A DNA stretch of 64,000 nucleotides from Candidatus Bathyarchaeota archaeon (lineage in GTDB: Archaea > Thermoproteota > Bathyarchaeia > Bathyarchaeales > Bathycorpusculaceae): the NCBI GenBank assembly GCA_963777155.1, contig CAVZPM010000009.1, positions 1-64,000 on the forward strand, read 5' to 3'. The position numbers and the translations under genes were made by a program. The notes below the pieces were generated by a model. It searched no databases. It was not told the origin of the DNA and saw only the letters and a program-made list of their open reading frames with translations. Below, piece by piece: positions 43,152-56,846 of the stretch (its first letter is position 1; the number at the start of each line of letters is the position of its first letter).

Positions 43152-44126
43152 TTAAACGACCAAGTCAGCCATGTCTACGCTTCTCTCGTAAATCTGCCTA
43201 AGAAAAGACACTGCCGACAAAATCTGAGGCATCAAATCTACCGACGAATCCTTCGCCAACTGTTCAATGCTTGAGTAGGTCGACTCGATTTTCTCGCGTA
43301 GATTTCGAACGTTTTCTGCTAATGAAATATCCTTGTTTAAGAAAGCTCTGATTGCTTGCTCGTTAGCTCCAGAACAGGCAAATAGCAGTTCAGACAGCAA
43401 CTTACGAAGGTCATCAGATAGTTTGATTCCGTTGAGTGCCAAAGTGTTTGAAGCAAACTGAACACAGGAGTCACCGATTCCTTCGATTAGGCTTGCAGCC
43501 AAACGATAGTCTAAGCACTCAATGGGCGTGATCCCAAGTTTATCACTCAACCTTGGATTCTGGATAATCGTCCGAAGAGTTCTTACGAGCAAAAAGTAAA
43601 GTCTGTTGCTTTCGTTGTCACGTGAGACCACGCTTTTAGCAAGCTCGAGATCGCTGTTAATAAAAGAGTTAGTGACATCTTTAATCATCCCTGCGACTAA
43701 ACCATGGTTTCGCTGTAGAATTTTTTCAGGCAAAAACCCAAAAGGTTGTTGTGATATGCTCTGTAGGGAAATCTTGCAAATGTTTTCTTCTACGATCTCT
43801 AAGCCTGCCAGAGAACTAGCTGTTGTCTTAACTATTTTTCTTGCAGTGGCATCGATCCGATCCTTGACTTCAATGTTAATAGTATCATAGCCTAACAAGT
43901 ATCGACCCACAATTTCACGCCCCAAAAAAGGACCGACACCCAAAATTGCAACTTTAGGTTCAGGTTCAGCCGCGTTCTTAGGATCAACAAGAAGTTTACC
44001 TTCACCTGTTACCTCCAAATTTACTAAAGCTCCTTTCTTTAAGCCGTTTTCTTTAGCCCAATCTCTGGGTAGGCAAACAAAGAAAGTTCCTGTTGGTGTT
44101 TGCTGAATTTTACGTGATTCACTCAT
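43152..44126 (-). CDS. Phosphate uptake regulator (AbrB + PhoU domains)
   Basis: RKIQQT..GTFFVCLPRDWA AbrB domain; two PhoU repeats. Confidence 0.92.
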   Translation of the reverse strand: MSESRKIQQTPTGTFFVCLPRDWAKENGLKKGALVNLEVTGEGKLLVDPKNAAEPEPKVAILGVGPFLGREIVGRYLLGYDTINIEVKDRIDATARKIVKTTASSLAGLEIVEENICKISLQSISQQPFGFLPEKILQRNHGLVAGMIKDVTNSFINSDLELAKSVVSRDNESNRLYFLLVRTLRTIIQNPRLSDKLGITPIECLDYRLAASLIEGIGDSCVQFASNTLALNGIKLSDDLRKLLSELLFACSGANEQAIRAFLNKDISLAENVRNLREKIESTYSSIEQLAKDSSVDLMPQILSAVSFLRQIYERSVDMADLVV

Positions 44127-44364
44127 ATGCATTTGCACCTTGGGAAGATATAACATATCTAAACTATGGTTTGATTATTTAAATTGAATTGATTTTACAT
44201 AACTTATCGACCAAAAATACAATTCTAAAAGAATAGAGCAAGAATCCTTGGTTTGAATTATTTTAAGAAAAAGAGAAAGGGAAAACAAAAAACAGTAAAT
44301 AACTCAAGAGCATAACTGCCTAACATAAAAATCGTCTCTGACTATTGGTCGAGGTAAGAACTCG

Positions 44365-45939
44365 ATGAACGCGCAAGAAAAACTTCAGAGGGCAATCCAA
44401 GTAACAATCGCCGCGGGATATCAACTAAACAGCGAAGCCTTCGAGTTTCTATGCCAAAACTGCGAAACAAGCGATCCAGTCACCATCATGAATCTCGCTT
44501 TTGAAAGGATACAGGCATTGCAGGAAAAGCCAATGTTTATTGAGAGAGGTTTTTTGGAAGCTCTCCTACAGCCTGCGATATCAGTGCTCGAAACACACTT
44601 GCCAGAGTTAAAAAAACCCCCAGAACCGCAAGCTACTATGGAACCTCTGACGACCCCAGAGACGATTATTGATGAAGCCGAATTCTATCCATACGCAAAA
44701 GACATACCTGCAGACTTCAAAATCATAGAAGACGCAACGGGCAAACTGAGCTCAAACGGAACACTCGACGAATACGTACTTTATTTTCAAGACCGCTTCA
44801 AACGCATTGAACACTTGCTAAGACAGAGAATGGACGTTAAAGCTGCAACCTCAATTCTGGAAGCATTAAAATCACCTGCAAAAACCAAACTAAAAATTAT
44901 CTGCATGTTAACTGAGAAGCGGGATTCAAAGAACCACACTATTCTTTCTGTTGAAGACTTGCAGGGTAGCGCAACTGTGCTGGTACCCCAAAAAGCGGCT
45001 GAAGAAGTTAAGAAGAAAGTCCTCATGCTTCTTCCTGATCAAGTAGTATGCCTGGCCGTAATCAAAACCCGAACCAACCTCCTAATGGTTGAAGACATTA
45101 TCTTTCCAGAGATAGGTAAAAAACAGCAACAGAGGGCAGAAGAACCAGTCTATGCAGTTCTTACTTCCGACATTCATATCGGTAGCACCAAGTTCACTAG
45201 AGATTCCTTTAAAAGATTCATACTCTGGCTCCAAGGTAAATACGGAACTCCAGAGATGCGGGAAATCGCTAGCCGAGTAAAGTACATCTTGGTCGCTGGA
45301 GACATTGTTGATGGCGTGGGAATCTATCCCGGCCAACAATATGAACTGACCATACGCGATGTGCACAAACAATATGACTTTGCTGCAAAATATCTTGAAA
45401 AGATTCCGGATTACATTGAAATCTTTCTCTCTCCGGGGAACCATGATGCAGCTCGTAAATCATTACCGCAACCAGCTATACCTGAAGGGTACCTAACAGC
45501 GATTAAAGGAAAAAAGAACATTCATTCAGTCGGTAGCCCATGTCTTCTAAGCCTTCATGGAGTTGAAGTTCTCATGTACCATGGTAGAAGTTTAGATGAC
45601 ATAATAGCGGTTATCCCTGGAATGGACCATGAACATCCCGAGAAAGCAATGCGGCTACTTATCCAGAGCCGTCATCTAGCACCTGTCTATGGCGGAAAAA
45701 CAATGCTTTCCCCAGAAAACCGAGATTACCTCGTTATCGACAGAGTGCCAGACATTTTCCATGCTGGGCACATACATGTTTTAGGTTATTGTAATTACCG
45801 TGGTGTGCTAGTTGTTAATTCGGGGGGTTGGCAAGACCAAACCGACTATATGGAGAAGTTAGGATTGGTCCCTACACCAGGAAAAGTGCCAGTGGTGAAC
45901 CTGCAAACAATGCATATTACTGTTTTGTCATTTAACTGA
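44365..45939 (+). CDS. polD1: DNA polymerase D small (exonuclease) subunit DP1
   Basis: SDIHIGS, AGDIVDGVGIYPGQ, PGNHD, YHGRS, FHAGHIH. Confidence 0.97.
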   Translation: MNAQEKLQRAIQVTIAAGYQLNSEAFEFLCQNCETSDPVTIMNLAFERIQALQEKPMFIERGFLEALLQPAISVLETHLPELKKPPEPQATMEPLTTPETIIDEAEFYPYAKDIPADFKIIEDATGKLSSNGTLDEYVLYFQDRFKRIEHLLRQRMDVKAATSILEALKSPAKTKLKIICMLTEKRDSKNHTILSVEDLQGSATVLVPQKAAEEVKKKVLMLLPDQVVCLAVIKTRTNLLMVEDIIFPEIGKKQQQRAEEPVYAVLTSDIHIGSTKFTRDSFKRFILWLQGKYGTPEMREIASRVKYILVAGDIVDGVGIYPGQQYELTIRDVHKQYDFAAKYLEKIPDYIEIFLSPGNHDAARKSLPQPAIPEGYLTAIKGKKNIHSVGSPCLLSLHGVEVLMYHGRSLDDIIAVIPGMDHEHPEKAMRLLIQSRHLAPVYGGKTMLSPENRDYLVIDRVPDIFHAGHIHVLGYCNYRGVLVVNSGGWQDQTDYMEKLGLVPTPGKVPVVNLQTMHITVLSFN

Positions 45940-45954
45940 CTTAGACACTACCAG

Positions 45955-47181
45955 CTAAATTCTTGTGGGATATTTGGGGGAATATTCAAATAAACGACTA
46001 AAGCGGTTATCACCACCAAGAACATCTCTAATCAAGCTACGGGAAATCTCCAGTCTAATCTTCTTAGTTCTGCCGTATCGACCCATGCTTACAACTTTTG
46101 CGTTTACAAGACCCATCGAATCAAGCTCATTGACCAAAGTACCTAAACGACGTTGCGTAAGAAGCCCAGAGCCCATCTCCCCGCACAATTCGTTGTAAAT
46201 GTCGTATATTTCCCCGGTTGTAGCGCTCGGTTTGTTTAGATGGTAAACACTCAACAGCACCAGCTTGGAATGCAAAGTCAAGTTATTTAGAGCTTCAACC
46301 ACACGGTTGTGCTCAATGTGTTTCTCCGCTTGGCGCACATGCTCTTCAGTAATTATTTTAGCACCTAAACGTTCAGCAACTTCTCCAGCCACGCGTAACA
46401 GATCCAAAGCTCGTCTAGCATCTCCATGTTCCGCTGCAGCTAAAGCTGAGCAAATACTTAATGCTGAATCAGATAACACTCCATCTTGGAAAGATAATTT
46501 TGAGCGTTCAAGCAAAATATTTCTGAGCTCACCAGCATCATACGGTCTAAAGACTAGTTCTTCTTCACTTAGTGAACTAAAGACCCGTGGGTCCAGAAAT
46601 TCTTTTAGGCGCAAATCATTGGATATACCGATTAGGGCAACTTTGCTTTTGGTTAGCGTTTCGTTTATCCTTGTCAATTCATACATGAATGCGTCGCCAT
46701 GTTCCTTAATCAACGCATCAACCTCATCTAAGACTATTATGAATATTACTCTAGATTGATCTAACCCTGCTCGGAATCTGTCGAAAACTTCTCCCGAAGA
46801 TAACCCTGTGAAGGGAATTGATAAACCCACACTTTGGCTCAGACTTGCAAAAACCCTATATTCAGAACCTGTCATCCTGCAGTTTATGTAGCAGAATTTT
46901 ACTTGCGCACCATACTCCTTAGCCTTGGATTCCAGATGACTTAAAACATATTTTGTTACAGCTGTTTTTCCTGTGCCAGTTTTTCCGTAAATGAAGATAT
47001 TTGAACATCTTGAGTCTCTCAACACTGGAGCAACCGTTGCACCTAAAAGTCTGATCTGGTCTTCGCGGTGTGGAAGCTTTTCAGGAAGATAATCATGTCT
47101 TAAGACCTCACGGTCCTTAAACAATTTAACACCGTTAACGAAGTTTTCGAATACATCATCTAATACATTTGAGTTGCCCAT
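45955..47181 (-). CDS. cdc6: Orc1/Cdc6 replication initiator
   Basis: LPHRE, GKTGTGKT, LDEVD, GDARRALDLLR, GRYGRT. Confidence 0.98.
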   Translation of the reverse strand: MGNSNVLDDVFENFVNGVKLFKDREVLRHDYLPEKLPHREDQIRLLGATVAPVLRDSRCSNIFIYGKTGTGKTAVTKYVLSHLESKAKEYGAQVKFCYINCRMTGSEYRVFASLSQSVGLSIPFTGLSSGEVFDRFRAGLDQSRVIFIIVLDEVDALIKEHGDAFMYELTRINETLTKSKVALIGISNDLRLKEFLDPRVFSSLSEEELVFRPYDAGELRNILLERSKLSFQDGVLSDSALSICSALAAAEHGDARRALDLLRVAGEVAERLGAKIITEEHVRQAEKHIEHNRVVEALNNLTLHSKLVLLSVYHLNKPSATTGEIYDIYNELCGEMGSGLLTQRRLGTLVNELDSMGLVNAKVVSMGRYGRTKKIRLEISRSLIRDVLGGDNRFSRLFEYSPKYPTRI

Positions 47182-47217
47182 TAGCCCATCCCTCTTATTC
47201 TATAGGCAACACGGTTA

Positions 47218-47794
47218 TTTCGAGTGGAACAGATAAAGGATACACTACAAAAAACTGGTTTTAGAACACAACAATCCTAAAAATCAATGAAAACAAGCGT
47301 TAACAACCAAACAAAGCAAGAGAAGACACACCCCAACGCTTCTACTGGAGAAATAAGCCACTTAAAAGAAAAGTACTAATTATAATATATGTAAATATAT
47401 ACTCTGGTAGGTTAAAAGTTCTTAAGTATATTAATAATTGTCATCCAAGAAATTAGACAAACATTCTGCAAATATTTTTTCAAGCTTTCCTGTCTTCTTT
47501 TTATCCTAAAACTTCGAGAGGAAACGTAGGGGTGGCCCTAAAACTAATTTATCTATGGAAAACACTTGGTTATAGATGGCAAGTTGTTTGATTTTAGCAT
47601 AATCTCGGTATAATCAACTCCGAGTAAAATTTGCCTCTTTTCGGAATAAAATTATGTTTGGCTTCACGTTCACAAAATTGTGAATACGTATGAAATAACA
47701 AAAATTCTGTTGGATTGTCAAGCTCTTTTTCCTATTAATTACCCTATTTCTGTCTTTCACAAGTGAATAAGCCACCCCTTCACTTCTACTGGAA
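47218..47794. promoter_or_regulatory. Replication origin (oriC) with four ORB elements in alternating orientation
   Basis: 47218+ TTTCGAGTGGAAC; 47331-47350(-) CTCCAGTAGAAGCGTTGGGG; 47512+ CTTCGAGAGGAAACGTAGGGG; 47775-47794(-) TTCCAGTAGAAGTGAAGGGG; AT-rich spacers; upstream of cdc6. Confidence 0.9.
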
Positions 47795-47968
47795 AACCGA
47801 AACAAGGACTGAACAATAATCTTTCAGCCTATCTGTTTATCTGTGAAGCTGGTAATAGCAATAAAGCTCCAAAAACAGCCGAATCAGCAAAAACAAGCAC
47901 TAATCCACCTTTTCATATGTGTCCAATTCACCGTAACAGCTTTAAGGTGTGAAGTGCAAAGTTGTGAA
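47663..47968. repeat. Cluster of GTGAA/TTCAC motifs upstream of the 142-aa wHTH gene
   Basis: 10 copies at 47663, 47669, 47680, 47756, 47763, 47779, 47843, 47927, 47949, 47964, including TTCACAA-AA-TTGTGAA. Confidence 0.7.
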
Positions 47969-47989
47969 CAACCTTAAGGTGTATCTGGG

Positions 47990-48418
47990 ATGCCGGCTCG
48001 TAAAATGCGCGTTGAGCTGTTCGATAGCGATGGTAATCGATATACCATTGCTTTTGAGGGTCAAGTAACCCGCGATAAAGCTCTGCGCCTACTTGACCTT
48101 GTCGAATTGCTAGGTGGTACACCTGGAGAAGGTCCAACTGTAAGCACAGGGCCAGTGATGCCTAACCGTGCCTTGTCACGTTTTGAGAAAGTCCAGTTGG
48201 TTATCCAAAAGAATTTTCCATTAATTTGGTTCTCTTCTAAAGACATTCAATCCATTTATGAACAGGAACTCAAAGAGCCAGTTGGCCTAAGCACTGTATC
48301 CACTTACCTCTCAAGGATGTCTGCTAAAGGTATGCTGATGAGGACTGGCGGATCAAACAGCCTCAAATACAAGACTGCGCCAAATGTTCCACAGGCAATT
48401 AAGCAGCGTATAAAATAG
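47990..48418 (+). CDS. Uncharacterised protein with C-terminal winged helix
   Basis: WFSSKDIQSIYEQELKEPVGLSTVSTYLSRM..KG.L.R.G wHTH pattern. Confidence 0.85.
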   Translation: MPARKMRVELFDSDGNRYTIAFEGQVTRDKALRLLDLVELLGGTPGEGPTVSTGPVMPNRALSRFEKVQLVIQKNFPLIWFSSKDIQSIYEQELKEPVGLSTVSTYLSRMSAKGMLMRTGGSNSLKYKTAPNVPQAIKQRIK

Positions 48419-48419
48419 C

Positions 48420-48456
48420 TTCACAATCTCTTCACAATATAGCATCAACTTGTGAA
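48420..48456. repeat. Three GTGAA/TTCAC motifs in the convergent intergenic gap
   Basis: TTCACAAT at 48420 and 48431 (11-bp spacing); GTGAA at 48452. Confidence 0.65.
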
Positions 48457-48476
48457 TGAAGCTAAAGATTTTATTG

Positions 48477-49337
48477 TTAGGTTGTTGGAGGTTCAGCCTT
48501 CTGTAGCAGAGCTTCCATTTCTTTCTTGATAGTATAGAGGAACGGAATCTTTCCTGCTTCCCTCTCAACATATCCTTCTTCATAGATCTTCTTCATCAAC
48601 CGTGCAGTATGCTCTCTACTAAGGTGGACTCTCTCTTTGATTTCCGGGGCAGTCTTCGCGCCTTCTTTTAAGAGCATTTCAAGCACTGTGATCTCTGTGT
48701 CAGTTAGAGCTGCTAAGGCTTTGTCGCGTCTAATGGGTACAGGTGGCAATAGAATTTCTGTTCTAATCTCTTGCTGTGGTTGAGCAACGGATAGTTTCTG
48801 GATTTGTTCCTCGAACCCTGCAATTCTATTTTTAAGAGATTCCTGTGTAGCCACGATGTCTTGGAGCTTTGCCTCTAATCCGGACAACCCAGACGTGATG
48901 GTGACATTGTTTTGCGTGTTTACTGATAAGTTCTTCGTAATTGTCTTTGACATCTCTTGCTGTGATTGGCTAAGCGCGCTAAGTTGGATTTCGAGTGGCT
49001 CGATTTTGCCCTCTAATCTTTCTGCTTTTCGGTGGCTGGCATCAGCTGCGATGTAGCTGCCATCGACTTTGGAAACCATTGTGTCAAATTTGTTAGCTTC
49101 ACGTTTTAATTCACGGTTGAAACTTAGCACAATATCCTCAATGAACTCTCTAGCTTTCTCATATTCTCTATGTGCCCTGCGTATTTGACGATAATATTCA
49201 TACGCAGCTACCGCTGTTAAAGCTAATAATACGCCAAAGATTATTGCCGTTAGGTCAACCGTACTTTTCCTCCCCTGTGATTTGACCGTGACCCCGCGTG
49301 ATTTAACGGTTGCATCACACATCACAGTATTCTCCAT
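48477..49337 (-). CDS. Membrane-anchored coiled-coil protein with C-terminal winged HTH (true start probably near 49262)
   Basis: TM AIIFGVLLALTAVAAY; long heptad region; LTDTEITVLEML..EG.KTAPEIK..VHLSREHTARLMKKIYEEGYVER. Confidence 0.87.
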   Translation of the reverse strand: MENTVMCDATVKSRGVTVKSQGRKSTVDLTAIIFGVLLALTAVAAYEYYRQIRRAHREYEKAREFIEDIVLSFNRELKREANKFDTMVSKVDGSYIAADASHRKAERLEGKIEPLEIQLSALSQSQQEMSKTITKNLSVNTQNNVTITSGLSGLEAKLQDIVATQESLKNRIAGFEEQIQKLSVAQPQQEIRTEILLPPVPIRRDKALAALTDTEITVLEMLLKEGAKTAPEIKERVHLSREHTARLMKKIYEEGYVEREAGKIPFLYTIKKEMEALLQKAEPPTT

Positions 49338-49560
49338 GGAAATTTAAGGTTATTGGTGACATCAATCCATGTTAGATATGACATCACACATCACAAACCG
49401 CCAAAATCCCTTCTGCTTATGTTTATCCATGTGTTAAAATAGCTTTGATTTAGCCTTATTTTGTGGAATAATCCTTGATTATTGAACCTGCGTGATATGT
49501 GATTTACTTCCTAAAAATATGGAAAAAATGATTGAATAACCTGTGATTTGTGACGTCACA
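49277..49560. repeat. Dense GTGAY/RTCAC motif array (cluster 1)
   Basis: 13 copies; CATCACA-CATCACA tandems at 49313 and 49382; palindrome TGTGACGTCACA at 49549. Confidence 0.85.
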
Positions 49561-50053
49561 GGAGCTCTTCTGATGGACTAGAAAGCCGTTTTAAGCTCGT
49601 TTCGAGCTCCGTTCTGATGATTTCTATGACTTTTAGGTGGTCTTTTAGTTCCTCTTCCTTGCTAGGTATGTCCTGGTGAGCCTCGACATATTCGTGCAGT
49701 TTATTGGCTATTTCGAGGTATGGGTCGAGAGTTGTGGTCTCAAAAACACCCAAATACCCTAGAAGTAGTACTGTGTAGATGGATTTAATGACGTTTTCAT
49801 TGGACTGTTTTAAGGTCCTATTAAACGATCCACGACTTATTTTAGCCCTTGTTAGCCTTAAAGCGGCTTTTTCATCGTACTTTAGCTGTTTACCCGATAT
49901 ACTCTCGGCTAAAACGTTAATGAGCAAAGTTTCCAGTTGTGTTTTTGTTAAATGGCTATTTTTAGCCAGAATTTGCACAATAGGGTCGTTTAACGCCCCA
50001 TTTAACCAAGCTGTTACGCCGTCTTTTAGCTTCAAATCTATGCTTTCCTCCAT
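49556..50053 (-). CDS. Uncharacterised helical protein with HTH-like segment
   Basis: LTKTQLETLL...YDEKAALR....ISRGSFNRTLKQ; acidic C-terminal helices. Confidence 0.82.
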   Translation of the reverse strand: MEESIDLKLKDGVTAWLNGALNDPIVQILAKNSHLTKTQLETLLINVLAESISGKQLKYDEKAALRLTRAKISRGSFNRTLKQSNENVIKSIYTVLLLGYLGVFETTTLDPYLEIANKLHEYVEAHQDIPSKEEELKDHLKVIEIIRTELETSLKRLSSPSEELL

Positions 50054-50403
50054 ACTCCAAATGGATACAGATTTGTATACTGCGCCTGCTTTTTATCCTT
50101 TAGACGGACCCTAAACTCTCAAAACCGCTCAATAAAATGGTCAAAACAGCACTAAAACGCTAAAATAACTCTAAATTTCAGACCTTTATTAAAATCTACA
50201 GTAATTTGGTACAATTAACATAATAAAGGCTAAAATATCGGGAGGTTTTTCAGTGAATATGCCTGAACTTTACACAAAAAATGCACTTTTGTAGGCGCAC
50301 CAAACCCGCCACACCTCTTTTTTTAATATTTCCGACGAAATAGCACACAGTTTTAGCTGCCTATTCTATAATTAAAACACATTTTTACATGCAAGTCTCC
50401 CAT

Positions 50404-50495
50404 GTGACACCATTAAAAAAACCTGTGATGTCACTAAAAAACCGTGATTTAGCCAAAATTCACTTGATATCACAACCCTGTGATTCACCTGTGAT
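50404..50495. repeat. Dense GTGAY/RTCAC motif array (cluster 2)
   Basis: 7 copies at 50404, 50425, 50430, 50444, 50469, 50480, 50491, including GTGATGTCAC. Confidence 0.85.
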
Positions 50496-50530
50496 GCCAA
50501 ACTCCAAGGCGACGATATATGTGTGAGGTG

Positions 50531-51364
50531 CTAAATTTGCTCTGAAAGCCGCTTTAGTTGATCATAAATCTCCGGTCTGAGATCACGGAGTGTAGGAATG
50601 AATGTTTCAGCGGCCCTCAAATCGCCAAAATCTACTTCGCAGACCACAAAATCCTCTTCATCATACTTTGCTTTAGCTAAAACGTCGCCTGTTGGACCCA
50701 CAAGGCGACTTCCACCCCAAAACTGCAGCCCATCCTCAACTCCTGCAAGGTTAACATATGCGAGATACGCGGTATTTTCCAAGGCTCTGGCGGCTGTTAG
50801 GATTTCAAAGTAGCCTCTACGCACCGCCGGTGACGCGGAAATGCAGATTATGAGTTGTGCACCCTTCAATCTCGGCAGCCTAAATACTTCTGGAAAGAAA
50901 ACATCATAGCAAATTGTTAATCCAATGTTTCCGATTTCAGTTTGGAAAGCCGCTGGCTCATATCCAGGCCGAAAATATCTTTTCTCCTCAAACACGCTGT
51001 GAGTAGGCAAGTACATTTTTCGGTATTTACCGATTAAACCCTGTGGCCCAATAAAGACTGCGGTGTTATAGACTGTTGCTTGAGTTTTTTCGCTTAGTTC
51101 AGGCATCCCAAAAATGATGTACATACCTGTTTTCTTGGCTAGCGTCGTTATCTTCTCAGTTGTGGGTCCAGGAATTGTTTCAGCCAACTCGTATACTTGA
51201 TCTAAAATAACATAACCCGTCAAGCACATCTCGGGAAAAATGGCTATATCTGCACCCTGCCGTTTTGCTTCTAAGGTCAAATTCTCAATTTTTTGCAAGT
51301 TCTCGGTTTTGTTTTCCCGTTTACTACTTATCTGGCACAGGGCAAGTTTGATTTTATGCTTCAT
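50531..51364 (-). CDS. Carbon-nitrogen hydrolase (nitrilase family); probable glutaminase partner of NadE
   Basis: FPE, YRK, ICYD catalytic triad; directly downstream of nadE. Confidence 0.92.
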   Translation of the reverse strand: MKHKIKLALCQISSKRENKTENLQKIENLTLEAKRQGADIAIFPEMCLTGYVILDQVYELAETIPGPTTEKITTLAKKTGMYIIFGMPELSEKTQATVYNTAVFIGPQGLIGKYRKMYLPTHSVFEEKRYFRPGYEPAAFQTEIGNIGLTICYDVFFPEVFRLPRLKGAQLIICISASPAVRRGYFEILTAARALENTAYLAYVNLAGVEDGLQFWGGSRLVGPTGDVLAKAKYDEEDFVVCEVDFGDLRAAETFIPTLRDLRPEIYDQLKRLSEQI

Positions 51365-53435: not shown

Positions 53436-56400
53436 TTGAATATTAGCAAGGGCTATCAAAATTACGTTGAGACACTGGAAAACCAGTTAAGACAACTCTA
53501 CATCATAAGCGATAGCGCCCGAACAAAAGGGCTCGACCCTGCACTAAAAACAGAATGCATAAGAGCTCAGGACATCGCCGATTTGGTAGAAGGTTTGGTT
53601 GGGCCTAAAGGTGTTGCCCTTAGCATCCGTGAGCTCAGCAGCAAGATGCCTCGTGAAGAAATAGCCTTCAAGGTTGCCCAAGAAATTGCTCAAGGCAAAT
53701 TCGCTCAAATGGATCAAGAGCAGCTGGCTGAGCAGGCTATTCGAACGGCGTTAGCAATCTTCACAGAGGGCTTAACCGCGGCGCCAATTCAAGGTATTGC
53801 GCAGGTTAAAATTAAAACAAACGCTGACAGGTCTCGTTATCTTGCGGTTTATTTTGCTGGGCCTATTCGTTCAGCAGGCGGCACAGATCAAGCATTGACT
53901 TTGGTAGTGGGCGATTATGTGCGGCGTGAACTCAACCTGGATAGGTATAAACCCACCGAAGAAGAAGTTTCCCGTTTCGTAGAAGAGCTGCGCCTCTATG
54001 AACGCTCCGTTGGGCGTTTTCAGTATCACATTCCAGACGAAGAACTTCGAAAAGCGCTAAACCTAATTCCTGTCGAATGTACAGGCACAGAATCCGACCC
54101 CGTTGAGGTGTCATCATACCGTAACTTGCAAAGAGTTGAAACAAACCGCGTCCGAGGCGGTGCCCTCCGTGTTGTAAACGATGGCATAGTAGGACGCGCC
54201 CAAAAAGTCTATGTAATCATCGACAAGTTAGGTTTCCAAGGCTGGGACTGGCTGAAAGAGTTCAAGAAGAAATCCGAGAAAAAATCCGGTGGCTTCATGG
54301 ATGACGTCATCGCAGGGCGCCCAATTTTTGCTTTTCCTTCAACCCGTGGCGGTTTTCGCCTAAGGTACGGTAGGTCACGAAACACTGGGCTATCAGCCGT
54401 AGGTATTCATCCTGCAACAATGGCTGTGGTTGAAAATTTTCTTGCAGCTGGCACACAGATGCGTCTGGAATTACCCGGTAAAGGCGGTGTCACTATGCCA
54501 GTCGATAGCATCGAGCAGCCTGTGGTTTTGCTCAAGGATAACTCAGTAGTTCGTGTGTCGCTTGAAAATTACGGCGATATTAAGGGTAAGATTCAAAAAA
54601 TCCTCTTCCTCGGAGATATTCTCATTGATTTTGGCGATTTTCTCTATTGCAACAAGGCACTTCCACCCTCGGGATACGTAGAGGAATGGTGGGCTAAAGA
54701 CCTTCAGAATGCGTTATTCGCTAAATATGGCGCTGATTATAGAAAGACTACAATCTCTTGTAATCTTTCCGTGGAAAAGTTGGAAAGTTTCATACTTGAC
54801 CCTTTTCTAAACAAACCCACAGTTAAAGAGGCAATCGCGCTTAGTCAAAACATAGGTGTCCCACTGTCCCCTAATTGCACGTTCTTCTGGACAAGTTTAT
54901 CTACTATTCAAGAAGTCGAATCCTTGCGAAATTGGTTGGCTTGCTCCGACGTAACTGTAGATGATAGGGGTATCTCTAAAATCACGGGAACTGCTAATAA
55001 TGATGTCGTTACGTCGCTTCGAAAGATCTTTGCACCCCATCGAATCGTCGACGGCAAAGTAGAGTTAATTGGTGAAGATGCGGCTGCTTTCGGATTCACT
55101 CTCGGTTACGGCAATCCACGGTTCACTCAGCCTTTGCAAGCGACTTCGGTACTTGAGTTGCTGAGCCTGCTATCTGGCGTGCAAATCAAAGATAAAGCAC
55201 CAACATACGTGGGTGGACGCATGGGTAGACCCGAAAAAGCCAAACACCGCGAAATGAAGCCAAACGTCCATGTCCTTTTTCCAGTTGGTTTGAAGGGTGG
55301 CTCCCACCGTGATCTGATGGAAGCGGCACGGCAGGGTCCAGTGTTCGTCGAGTTAGCTAAACGCAAATGTCCCAACTGCAAAACATATACACCCAAAGTT
55401 AAATGTGACAACTGTGGCTTTGAAACCGTCCACGAGAAAAGCTGCCCGCGCTGCGGCAGAACAGTGAAAGATAGCGGATGTTCAACCTGTAAAACAGACG
55501 GTGTCCTCTATCAACGGCAGCCTATTAACTTCAAAGAACAAATAGACAAAGCATCAAGCAACCTTGGCTGCCAGGCGCCAAAAATGCTGCGCGGCGTTAA
55601 AGGCTTAACCAACGCAGATAAGACCCCTGAAATCATCGAAAAAGGCATCTTAAGGGCAAAGCATGGATTATCTGTTTACAAGGATGGTACCATACGCTTC
55701 GACGCCACAAACGCTCCCTTAACACATATTACACCAGCTGAAGTCGGTGTATCGATCGAAAAGATGCATCAGATGGGATACCTCGCGGACACCAATGGAT
55801 TACCCTTAACTGACCCTAACCAAGTCTGTGAACTAAAAATTCAAGATGTCGTTATTCCTTGGCGTGCAGGAGAATACTTCGTCCAAATCGCCGCATTCAT
55901 CGATGATCTATTAACTCGTGTGTACAAGCAACCTGTCTTCTATAATGTTAAGAAGGCTGAAGATTTGGTTGGTCACTTGCTTTTTGGGTTGGCGCCGCAC
56001 ACATGTGCTTGCATTTTAGGAAGAGTGGTCGGTTTTACTGATCGTAACTTGATTTATGCTCATCCTGTTTGGCATTCGGCTAAACGTCGTGACTGCGACG
56101 GAGACGAAGACGCCATCATGCTTGCGCTCGACACGTTGATAAACTTTTCACGAATCTATTTGCCTGCGCAAATCGGCGGAATCATGGACGCGCCAATCTT
56201 GCTTATCCCCTTTGTGAACACTAAAGAGGTGCAACGGCAAGCCCACGACTTTGACGTCAGCGCCACCTACCCCATAGAATTTTATAAGAAGACTTTGGAG
56301 AAGTGCGATGCAAGACCCGCAAGTGCTTTAATGGATGTCATTAGTCATCGATTGGGAACTGAAGCCCAGTTTGAAGGCTTCCAATACACAACTCCGTGCA

Positions 56401-56846
56401 CAAACATCAACTTAGGCAACGCCAACAGTTCGTATAAAGAATTCAAATCAATGATAGATAAGCTTCACATGCAGCTGGAACTTGGCGAAAAAATAGAAGC
56501 TGTTGATGCAAGGAAAGTAGCCCTTAAAGTTCTCAACACGCACTTCATGCGTGACATTGCCGGAAACTTGCGTGCATTCTCAACTCAGGGCTTCCGATGT
56601 AAATCCTGCAACAAAAAGTTCCGTCGACTGCCTCTTAAAGGGAAATGTCCATTTTGCGGCGGCAAACTAACACTTACGGTTTATCGAGGTGGAATAGAGA
56701 AGTATCTGGTGGCTGCTCAACAATTGGTGGATAAGTATGGTTTGCCAAAGTACTACACGCAACGCATGGACCTAATCAAGGAAGAGATAGCTATGATGTT
56801 TGATAACAAGAAACCCAAACAAGCCACGCTTTTCGACTTCAAGTAG
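53436..56846 (+). CDS. polD2: DNA polymerase D large subunit DP2 (no intein)
   Basis: AGPIRSAGGT, RLRYGRSRNTG, RMGRPEKAK, KRRDCDGDED, C-terminal Zn finger and PIP box QATLFDF. Confidence 0.98.
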   Translation: MNISKGYQNYVETLENQLRQLYIISDSARTKGLDPALKTECIRAQDIADLVEGLVGPKGVALSIRELSSKMPREEIAFKVAQEIAQGKFAQMDQEQLAEQAIRTALAIFTEGLTAAPIQGIAQVKIKTNADRSRYLAVYFAGPIRSAGGTDQALTLVVGDYVRRELNLDRYKPTEEEVSRFVEELRLYERSVGRFQYHIPDEELRKALNLIPVECTGTESDPVEVSSYRNLQRVETNRVRGGALRVVNDGIVGRAQKVYVIIDKLGFQGWDWLKEFKKKSEKKSGGFMDDVIAGRPIFAFPSTRGGFRLRYGRSRNTGLSAVGIHPATMAVVENFLAAGTQMRLELPGKGGVTMPVDSIEQPVVLLKDNSVVRVSLENYGDIKGKIQKILFLGDILIDFGDFLYCNKALPPSGYVEEWWAKDLQNALFAKYGADYRKTTISCNLSVEKLESFILDPFLNKPTVKEAIALSQNIGVPLSPNCTFFWTSLSTIQEVESLRNWLACSDVTVDDRGISKITGTANNDVVTSLRKIFAPHRIVDGKVELIGEDAAAFGFTLGYGNPRFTQPLQATSVLELLSLLSGVQIKDKAPTYVGGRMGRPEKAKHREMKPNVHVLFPVGLKGGSHRDLMEAARQGPVFVELAKRKCPNCKTYTPKVKCDNCGFETVHEKSCPRCGRTVKDSGCSTCKTDGVLYQRQPINFKEQIDKASSNLGCQAPKMLRGVKGLTNADKTPEIIEKGILRAKHGLSVYKDGTIRFDATNAPLTHITPAEVGVSIEKMHQMGYLADTNGLPLTDPNQVCELKIQDVVIPWRAGEYFVQIAAFIDDLLTRVYKQPVFYNVKKAEDLVGHLLFGLAPHTCACILGRVVGFTDRNLIYAHPVWHSAKRRDCDGDEDAIMLALDTLINFSRIYLPAQIGGIMDAPILLIPFVNTKEVQRQAHDFDVSATYPIEFYKKTLEKCDARPASALMDVISHRLGTEAQFEGFQYTTPCTNINLGNANSSYKEFKSMIDKLHMQLELGEKIEAVDARKVALKVLNTHFMRDIAGNLRAFSTQGFRCKSCNKKFRRLPLKGKCPFCGGKLTLTVYRGGIEKYLVAAQQLVDKYGLPKYYTQRMDLIKEEIAMMFDNKKPKQATLFDFK

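Follow-up and report, generated by a model that had tools for sequence, protein, structure and literature searches.

Beside a putative replication origin (oriC) in an archaeon of the Bathyarchaeia lie three genes, here called A, B, and C, which form a module that is real and ancient. The module stands in a stretch of 64,000 nucleotides (nt) from a Candidatus Bathyarchaeota archaeon (GenBank assembly GCA_963777155.1, contig CAVZPM010000009.1, positions 1 to 64,000; hereafter, the window), and sequence comparison shows that the core promoter of each of the three genes carries a conserved repeated element specific to that gene. The reading that we favor, to which we give a probability of roughly 40%, is that the three products are self-repressing, self-targeting DNA-binding proteins and that B forms a membrane-attached complex on origin-proximal DNA. 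The module thus consists of three uncharacterized families, each with a predicted cognate element, beside the origin in two abundant archaeal classes, including the cultured Nitrosopumilus, and the locus is a concrete candidate for chromosome positioning or separation in Bathyarchaeia and in ammonia-oxidizing Thaumarchaeota.

The three proteins and their sites

A first-pass annotation of this DNA had placed A, B, and C next to cdc6 and oriC and had described them as members of unknown families, each with a helix-turn-helix (HTH)-like segment. The open reading frames (ORFs) and the Pfam matches of the initiator agree with this placement, and none of the three proteins belongs to a characterized functional family in Pfam, PADLOC, or NCBIfam. 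Public records call them “hypothetical protein” or “winged helix DNA-binding protein”. NCBIfam gave nothing above cut-off for any of the three, its weak Lrs14/Sta1 matches to B falling below it, and PADLOC returned only weak matches, to the winged HTH (wHTH) and coiled coil of B and one for A (best E 7.5e-6), with none for C and no match of A, B, or C to a defense family as a whole.

The description of B as a transmembrane (TM) helix, a long coiled coil, and a C-terminal wHTH is borne out (residue ranges in Table 1). The protein has one hydrophobic stretch (Kyte-Doolittle 2.28), followed by a stalk whose strong 3.5-residue hydrophobic periodicity was matched by none of 2000 shuffles, and its wHTH scores over cut-off for both Pfam TrmB (PF01978, 32.3 bits against 25.6) and MarR (PF01047, 26.8 against 24.6). 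Outside the wHTH, no further domain reached cut-off, and the effector-binding or dimerization domains of the TrmB/MarR family were not found. The tail before the TM helix has only 0-28 residues, too few for a sensor domain beyond the membrane, and the basic residues after the helix suggest that the stalk and the wHTH face the cytoplasm. The TM helix is present in 23 of 36 B homologs, and B itself occurs in 35 of 41 relatives, essentially as a single copy. The sequence of its recognition helix, (S/T)REHTxRLMKK, does not vary between Bathyarchaeia and Nitrosopumilus, and neither does its motif; that is, a predicted membrane-anchored wHTH protein has kept both over a very long time.

Two sets of short motifs surround these genes, and the numbers first reported for them, 13 copies of GTGAA/TTCAC and 20 of GTGAY/RTCAC, were reproduced at the same places (the former at 47663-48452, the latter as two arrays of 13 and 7 copies). 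In 300-bp segments of the window, the maximum is 9 for GTGAA (mean 0.71, 99th percentile 3) and 12 for GTGAY (mean 0.78, 99th percentile 5). Over the 2.29-Mb assembly, the locus holds the densest GTGAA cluster, with 9 copies versus 6 for the next, and its GTGAY clusters, with 13 and 8, rank at the top. The runner-up GTGAA clusters (C22:19651 and C11:37601; labels beginning with C are contigs of the assembly, and those beginning with L are loci of relatives) are scattered copies within coding DNA, and the sole other GTGAY cluster of 8, at C13:56051, is a 30-bp coding tandem repeat unrelated to the module. This repeat, at C13:56003-56338, lies within a predicted surface protein of 507 amino acids (aa) and mimics a GTGAC cluster. 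Genome-wide, 7 of the 23 TGTGAY pairs and 2 of the 4 GTGAYRTCAC palindromes fall in 1.3 kb of the locus, and this locus is also the only place where paired GTGAY sites cluster in three complete Bathyarchaeia genomes (7 of 31, 8 of 40, and 12 of 55 matches). The sites are essentially confined to the locus and no regulon is visible, and binders with so few sites beyond their own locus suggest that binding at the locus itself is the function, as in partition systems. Alternatively, such locus-confined binders may also serve a second purpose unrelated to DNA.

The first-pass annotation had allowed for C, together with A or by itself, as the protein that coats the arrays, and for the GTGAY copies, this suggestion did not survive. 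When 55 loci were scored with a hidden Markov model of B, with B called at E below 1e-8 (36 loci with and 19 without), at least 8 GTGAY copies in some 300 bp were present in 31 of the 36 loci with B and in none of the 19 without it (maximum 7), a comparison in which the threshold was picked after the counts were seen and the related genomes are not independent, although the B-less loci come from at least 12 families. Thus, the GTGAY arrays go with B and not with C. For instance, eight class-level loci keep A and C and have neither B nor an array, and L027 is a ninth locus without B, in which C is kept and A is missing as well.

An unbiased search for enriched 5-mers upstream of B returned ATCAC, TCACA, and CGTGA. 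Throughout the order, the DNA upstream of B reads GTGATgtGTGAT, about 20 nt, GTGACGTCAC, ccataa, CTTAAGTT, 15-20 nt, and GTGATgtGTGAT again, followed by several ATCAC at gaps of 5-6 nt, and YTGTGAY half-sites flank the TATA-like element of B on both sides. Four genus relatives (L013, L014, L020, and L026) have no open frame across the equivalent of the first ~25 codons of B (49262-49337), and start codons vary, so the GTGAY copies “in” the 5′ end of B may be promoter or 5′ untranslated DNA. Array 2 is a conserved block in the genus alignment, and in other families of the order, a second GTGAY array is found at the start of a conserved 110-aa gene or at the stop codon of the carbon-nitrogen (CN) hydrolase gene.

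The wHTH attributed to A is seen in its AlphaFold2 model (predicted local distance difference test, pLDDT, 70), which comprises a beta-beta-alpha domain (4-41), a linker, and the wHTH (64-129). Foldseek returned generic wHTH matches at E ~0.01, among them AspA (5k5o) at rank 31 with E 0.03, and a profile search against PDB sequences gave nothing below E 0.05. A is present as a single copy in 132 of 201 genomes of the phylum, with a mean column identity of 64% within the order. Its promoter operator (Table 1) is followed by an AGGTG ribosome-binding-like element and then ATG, and the same arrangement recurs across Bathyarchaeia: TTCAC, ~13-17 nt including a TATA-like element, GTGAA, ~10 nt, GTGAA, AGGTG, and ATG. 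At least two boxes in the 130 nt upstream were found for 32 of 49 A homologs (background 0.30), and in Nitrosopumilaceae, GTTAAC replaces the A boxes at the same places. The triple-site layout has just two matches in the genome, at the A promoter and at the 3′ end of A, and 3-5 copies in the 120 nt after A are also present in three of the 14 order-level loci (L014, L021, and L025). As for the boxes within the origin, the one at 47779 forms part of an origin recognition box (ORB) itself, and in genus and order relatives, boxes occur at the same distances from A and Cdc6 as here. At the class level, only the promoter-proximal boxes are conserved and pass the cluster test, the in-origin boxes being found at the order level. 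Both motif arrays are conserved across relatives.

C was annotated as having an HTH-like helical region. Its model (pLDDT 90.7) has seven helices and is all helical, in agreement with the second half of that description, whereas for the HTH there are weak leads only: SigD4 (Foldseek E 3-4), EsrB (Z 6.0, root-mean-square deviation 2.8, 64 residues aligned over 32-106), and an Atlas cluster (score 0.79) in which 14% of the members have Sigma70_r4. The wider list of structure matches consists mostly of helical hairpins (Z 6-7.5) and is uninformative. Pfam gave no match for 70 members of the C family at E up to 0.01, Foldseek nothing at E 0.001 or better, and a profile search against PDB sequences nothing below E 0.05. 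C is well kept, as a single copy in 120 of 151 genomes of the class and with a mean column identity of 68% within the order.

C has a palindrome of its own, of the form GKATAC-N6-GTATCC, which has a single strict match in the genome. It lies upstream of 31 of 43 homologs in the strict form and of 38 of 43 in the loose form, against an expectation of 0.016 per 140 bp. Its symmetric changes fit both an RNA hairpin and a DNA operator, and a search of Rfam over 47000-50700 at E up to 1 gave no match. A complex prediction of B (47-286) with C scored 0.00, which is evidence neither way. In the 350 bp between array 2 and the C promoter, a further block (50265-50291, complement of CAAAAGTGCATTTTTTGTGTAAAGTT) is kept in most genus relatives; it contains no ORF of at least 50 aa and no Rfam match.

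Gene order beside the origin

A pattern scan of the DNA between Orc1/Cdc6 and A, an intergenic stretch of 808 bp, found four sites with ORB-like boxes (47219, 47340, 47513, and 47784), which account for 5 of the 10 matches of the window, with 47784 matching on both strands. Two of them are full ORBs with a G-string (GGGGTGG) in inverted orientation, at 47513 (+, G-string at 47529) and 47784 (-, G-string at 47772). The AT content reaches up to 90% in an AT-rich stretch at 47362-47460, and since the boxes flank this stretch beside orc1/cdc6, we infer that 47182-47800 is oriC. The assembly holds a second Orc1/Cdc6 gene, at C35:46956-47210, which is without a copy of A, B, or C, and genome-wide scans found no motif cluster near it.

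The gene order PolD-small, Cdc6, oriC, A, (B), C, PolD-large is shared by 12 of 14 order-level loci, most class-level loci, and four Nitrosopumilaceae genomes. In the order-level loci, B and C are adjacent in all 14 and A is present in 13; Cdc6 lies inside the fetched stretch in 12, and the remaining two stretches stop at a contig end. Among 20 class-level loci centered on C, Cdc6 is within the stretch in 17 and A in 15, and A and Cdc6 are divergent across oriC in the order-level and most class-level loci. In Nitrosopumilus, the island consists of PolD-small, Cdc6, an ORB-bearing origin, A, B (with TM helix, stalk, and wHTH), a GTGAT array, C, geranylgeranylglyceryl phosphate (GGGP) synthase, and PolD-large. 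One Nitrosopumilus locus also has a small AbrB/SpoVT-like reading frame between A and B (L047:3280-3430, -).

Eight of the 14 order relatives carry two additional genes between A and B, on the strand of A, which encode a NurA-like protein (330 aa) and a HerA-like ATPase (515 aa). The ATPase matches DUF87/HerA with 33.7 bits (cut-off 23.2), scores far below cut-off for the NCBIfam HerA and CedD models, and has weak PADLOC HerA matches, while the NurA-like protein reaches 19.2 bits for Pfam NurA, below the cut-off of 21. The pair is absent from the window and was not found in the assembly (91% complete) with the query from the relatives.

Table 1. Coordinates of the module, its predicted sites, and neighboring genes (window positions unless a locus label is given)
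Feature	Position	Strand	Description
PhoU/AbrB-like gene	43152-44156	-	AbrB/MazE-like domain fused to PhoU domains
PolD small subunit gene	44365-45939	+	
Orc1/Cdc6 initiator gene	45955-47181	-	Pfam Cdc6_lid 85.5 bits, Cdc6_C 82.9 bits
Putative oriC	47182-47800		ORB-like boxes and AT-rich stretch, called from sequence alone
Six A boxes between two inverted full ORBs	47663-47783		At 47663, 47669, 47680, 47756, 47763, 47779
Single GTGAA between origin boxes and A promoter	47843-47847	+	
A promoter operator	47927-47968	+	TTCAC-N17-GTGAA around a TATA-like element, third GTGAA 10 nt downstream
Gene A, 142 aa	47990-48418	+	N-terminal beta-beta-alpha domain and C-terminal wHTH
Second A-box triple	48420-48456		TTCACAAT, TTCACAAT, TTGTGAA; between 3′ ends of A and B
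Gene B	48477-49337	-	TM anchor 27-45, heptad-periodic stalk 50-200, TrmB/MarR-type wHTH 211-270
GTGAY array 1, 13 copies	49277-49559		B promoter and 5′ end, reaching C stop codon; includes palindrome TGTGACGTCACA
Gene C, 165 aa	49556-50053	-	All helical; possible sigma-4/LuxR-like HTH ~32-106, C-terminal helical hairpin
C palindrome	50063-50080		GGATACAGATTTGTATAC; 10-27 nt upstream of C ATG
GTGAY array 2, 7 copies	50404-50495		350-440 bp upstream of C, just beyond CN hydrolase stop
CN hydrolase, NAD synthase, Elf1-like, and GGGP synthase genes	Between C and PolD large subunit gene		
PolD large subunit gene	53436-56846	+	
NurA-like/HerA-like pair of relatives	L013:4979-7514		Also in L015, L016, L018, L019, L022, L023, L024

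Candidate readings: anchor, circuit, or control of the origin

In the reading that we favor, each protein would bind its own element and repress itself. The N-terminal helix of B would sit in the membrane and leave the coiled-coil stalk and the wHTH on the cytoplasmic side, and by binding to 20 half-sites in two clusters that bracket C, B would form a membrane-attached nucleoprotein complex. This complex would pin to the membrane DNA that is located 1.5-3.3 kb from the ORB boxes of oriC. Self-repression would hold B near the amount that fills the arrays. The logic would be that of an origin-proximal anchor, by analogy with RicO/ricS or RacA/ram. The combination of a TM helix and a wHTH in B fits the architecture of a membrane or pole anchor, in the sense of architecture and not of homology, and is compatible with the role of membrane-DNA linker first suggested for it. 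A would probably couple its own expression to the occupancy of the origin by Orc1, or the reverse, given that its order-level boxes lie between the ORBs and at its own 3′ end and that its promoter abuts the outermost ORB in most relatives. In the relatives that have them, this coupling would extend to the NurA-like and HerA-like genes downstream of A.

Several observations weigh against such an anchor. The positions of the sites seem, from the sequence, to be those of the TATA element, the transcription factor B recognition element (BRE), and the transcription start, and because the motif sets lie on the core promoters of their own genes, plain autorepression would explain much of the pattern without any structural role. 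The sites together span no more than 1.3 kb, whereas those of RacA, the protein with which the analogy would be made, are widely spread. B was not found in 9 of the 20 class-level loci that keep C, so it is dispensable, and the distribution suggests that it has been lost repeatedly. In addition, five distant phylum-level B-like proteins have no TM helix; no strong array accompanies four of these, while the fifth (L050) has 9 copies.

The linkage to cdc6 and oriC, on which the first-pass annotation had built, holds in part: it is found in the 12 order-level and 17 class-level loci mentioned above and in Nitrosopumilus, but among 20 phylum-level loci centered on A, Cdc6 is near in only 7, four of which are complete Nitrosopumilus genomes of ~1.6-1.8 Mb, and A is away from Cdc6 in 13. 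Furthermore, the entire neighborhood is syntenic, including the metabolic genes for NAD synthase, CN hydrolase, and GGGP synthase, and with the whole island conserved in this manner, the position at the side of oriC is weak functional evidence. The haloarchaeal OapABC/ArvABC system may serve as a warning against reading function from proximity to the origin, as the available text of the report describes a conserved origin-side operon that was first suspected to act in replication and acts in vesicle formation (PMC10927574). Its proteins (a small GTPase, DUF2073, and DUF2072; PMC10927574) are unrelated to the trio described here.

A distinctly possible alternative, which we would hold only tentatively, is that the locus is a local transcription circuit. 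A, B, and C would then be autoregulated factors acting on themselves and on their immediate neighbors, namely, the NurA-like and HerA-like genes of the relatives, gene C, and the 110-aa gene together with an aminotransferase gene; the position at the side of oriC would be inherited gene order, and the anchor of B would serve regulation, for example through proteolytic release or sequestration. Autorepression through sites over the TATA box or the transcription start is typical of archaeal regulators of the TrmB/MarR/Lrs14 type, and all three motif sets overlap their own core promoters in this classic repressor layout. A circuit would also account for the class-wide conservation of the promoter-proximal A boxes alone, for the second GTGAY array at the start of the 110-aa gene in other families, and for the loss of B in many lineages, and it is in line with the synteny of the island, metabolic genes included, and with the precedent of the misleading origin association of OapABC. 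Nevertheless, the sites are essentially confined to the locus, and with no regulon, these factors would regulate little but themselves, while 20 half-sites is a large number for an operator. No sensor domain of B lies outside the membrane, and unlike the TrmB/MarR/Lrs14 regulators, B has a TM anchor and a 150-residue stalk in place of an effector domain. A (64%) and C (68%) are far more conserved than typical lineage-specific regulators, A being phylum-wide, and any binder that is inserted in the membrane necessarily keeps its target DNA there. Even if the locus were only a regulatory circuit, it would pair three proteins with their motifs and supply a promoter grammar for archaea that have been little studied.

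We consider it rather unlikely that the trio is an origin-control module in which A, perhaps together with C, acts through its boxes between the ORBs on the binding of Orc1 or on the firing of the origin, and B holds the newly replicated origin region at the membrane, thus delaying re-initiation, much as in bacterial origin sequestration. The order-level A boxes that lie between the inverted full ORBs, one of them being part of an ORB, the ORB-like box at no more than ~130 nt from the start of A in many class-level loci, and the divergent arrangement of A and Cdc6 across oriC speak for such a module. However, the in-origin boxes are an order-level feature, with promoter boxes alone at the class level, A is away from any Cdc6 in those 13 of 20 phylum-level loci, and the second Orc1/Cdc6 of the genome is without the module. 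Finally, that the arrays are chance or compositional clusters, or that the region is the remnant of a mobile or defense element, is very improbable, and the conservation data already contradict it. In its favor, the motifs are short (5 nt), HerA-like/NurA-like pairs are known from defense systems, and the ATPase of the relatives has its weak PADLOC HerA matches. Against it, the arrays rank first genome-wide, their position is conserved across two classes, each gene is present as one syntenic copy in nearly all members of the class, and the PADLOC matches of A, B, and C are weak, with none to a whole defense family.

Relation to known anchors and partition systems

Among bacterial systems, RacA/ram and Noc/NBS from Bacillus subtilis each use a DNA-binding protein to tether chromosomal sites to the pole or the membrane. 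RacA consists of an HTH and a coiled coil and is anchored through DivIVA, while Noc is a ParB relative with an amphipathic helix. Their sites extend over hundreds of kilobases, whereas here there is one compact array beside the gene. In plasmid type II and Ib partition systems such as ParR/parC, ~10 short repeats flank the promoter of the binder operon and act as both centromere and autoregulatory operator, and repeated cis sites beside the binder gene are likewise a feature that the locus shares with ParABS and type I partition. ParR/parC-type systems, however, have a ParM or ParA motor in the operon and ribbon-helix-helix binders, while here there is no motor in the window and the binder is a predicted membrane-anchored wHTH protein.

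A recent bacterial parallel in logic is RicO/ricS from Staphylococcus aureus, presented in the available part of a preprint as a proposed origin anchor at the cell periphery (bioRxiv 10.64898/2026.03.06.710092). RicO resembles B in joining a sequence-specific DNA-binding domain to a membrane element and in having origin-proximal sites, and it differs from B in being bacterial, with an N-terminal DNA-binding domain and a C-terminal amphipathic helix. Compared by architecture, B has its membrane element first, in the form of a true TM helix, then a long coiled coil, and last a wHTH of the TrmB/MarR type, and its sites are all found in 1.3 kb and on the promoter of B itself.

In archaea, the reviews, in their available portions, name only SegAB and AspA-ParBA as segregation systems, both from other lineages (PMC5120986, PMC7617429). 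Within the part of the text available for these systems, dimeric binders (SegB and AspA, the latter a wHTH protein) are described on palindromes just upstream of their own cassette, which are taken as centromeres, and AspA is described as spreading over >200 bp; both systems need an adjacent ParA-type ATPase, and their binders are not membrane-anchored (PMC5120986). The locus had been described at first as ATPase-less, which is correct within the window: no AAA_31 (ParA/MinD-type) match was found in its 64 kb, no ParA-type gene adjoins A, B, or C, none of the three has a ParB-family Pfam match at E up to 1, and there is no adjacent parB. The label does not extend further, as 8 of the 14 order relatives have the HerA-like ATPase and AAA_31 has 11 matches elsewhere in the assembly, 10 of them over cut-off. 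In the literature searched, which included the available portions of PMC5898192 and PMC7617429 and had subscription journals and supplements outside its scope, we found no description of the module.

A more ambitious version of the anchor may be imagined, which we regard as unlikely. The locus would be the first archaeal chromosome-membrane anchor, predating the split between Bathyarchaeia and Nitrososphaeria, in which B on the GTGAY arrays fixes the origin region to the envelope, A ties the complex to Orc1-bound oriC, and the NurA-like/HerA-like pair, cotranscribed with A in the relatives, is a DNA-translocating motor. If true, this would be a new origin-segregation machine in lineages without a known segregation system.

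Some minor observations concern the neighborhood and the motifs. In most relatives at the order and class levels, the gene for the AbrB/MazE-PhoU fusion is kept as a neighbor of the PolD small subunit gene. In other families of the order (L016:9656-11153, L018, L019, L022, L023, and L024), the aminotransferase gene and the conserved 110-aa gene, a member of no known family, lie between C and the CN hydrolase gene. Of 80 public records with close copies of the B locus, two (L114 and L115) are labeled Methanocella sp. and Limnocylindrales bacterium, labels that likely come from contigs in the wrong bin. Finally, a 24-nt element, TGTGAY-N-AAG-N-GACAGTCACA, occurs at three distant places of the assembly, at 1319-1342 of the window, C13:24189, and C32:70782.

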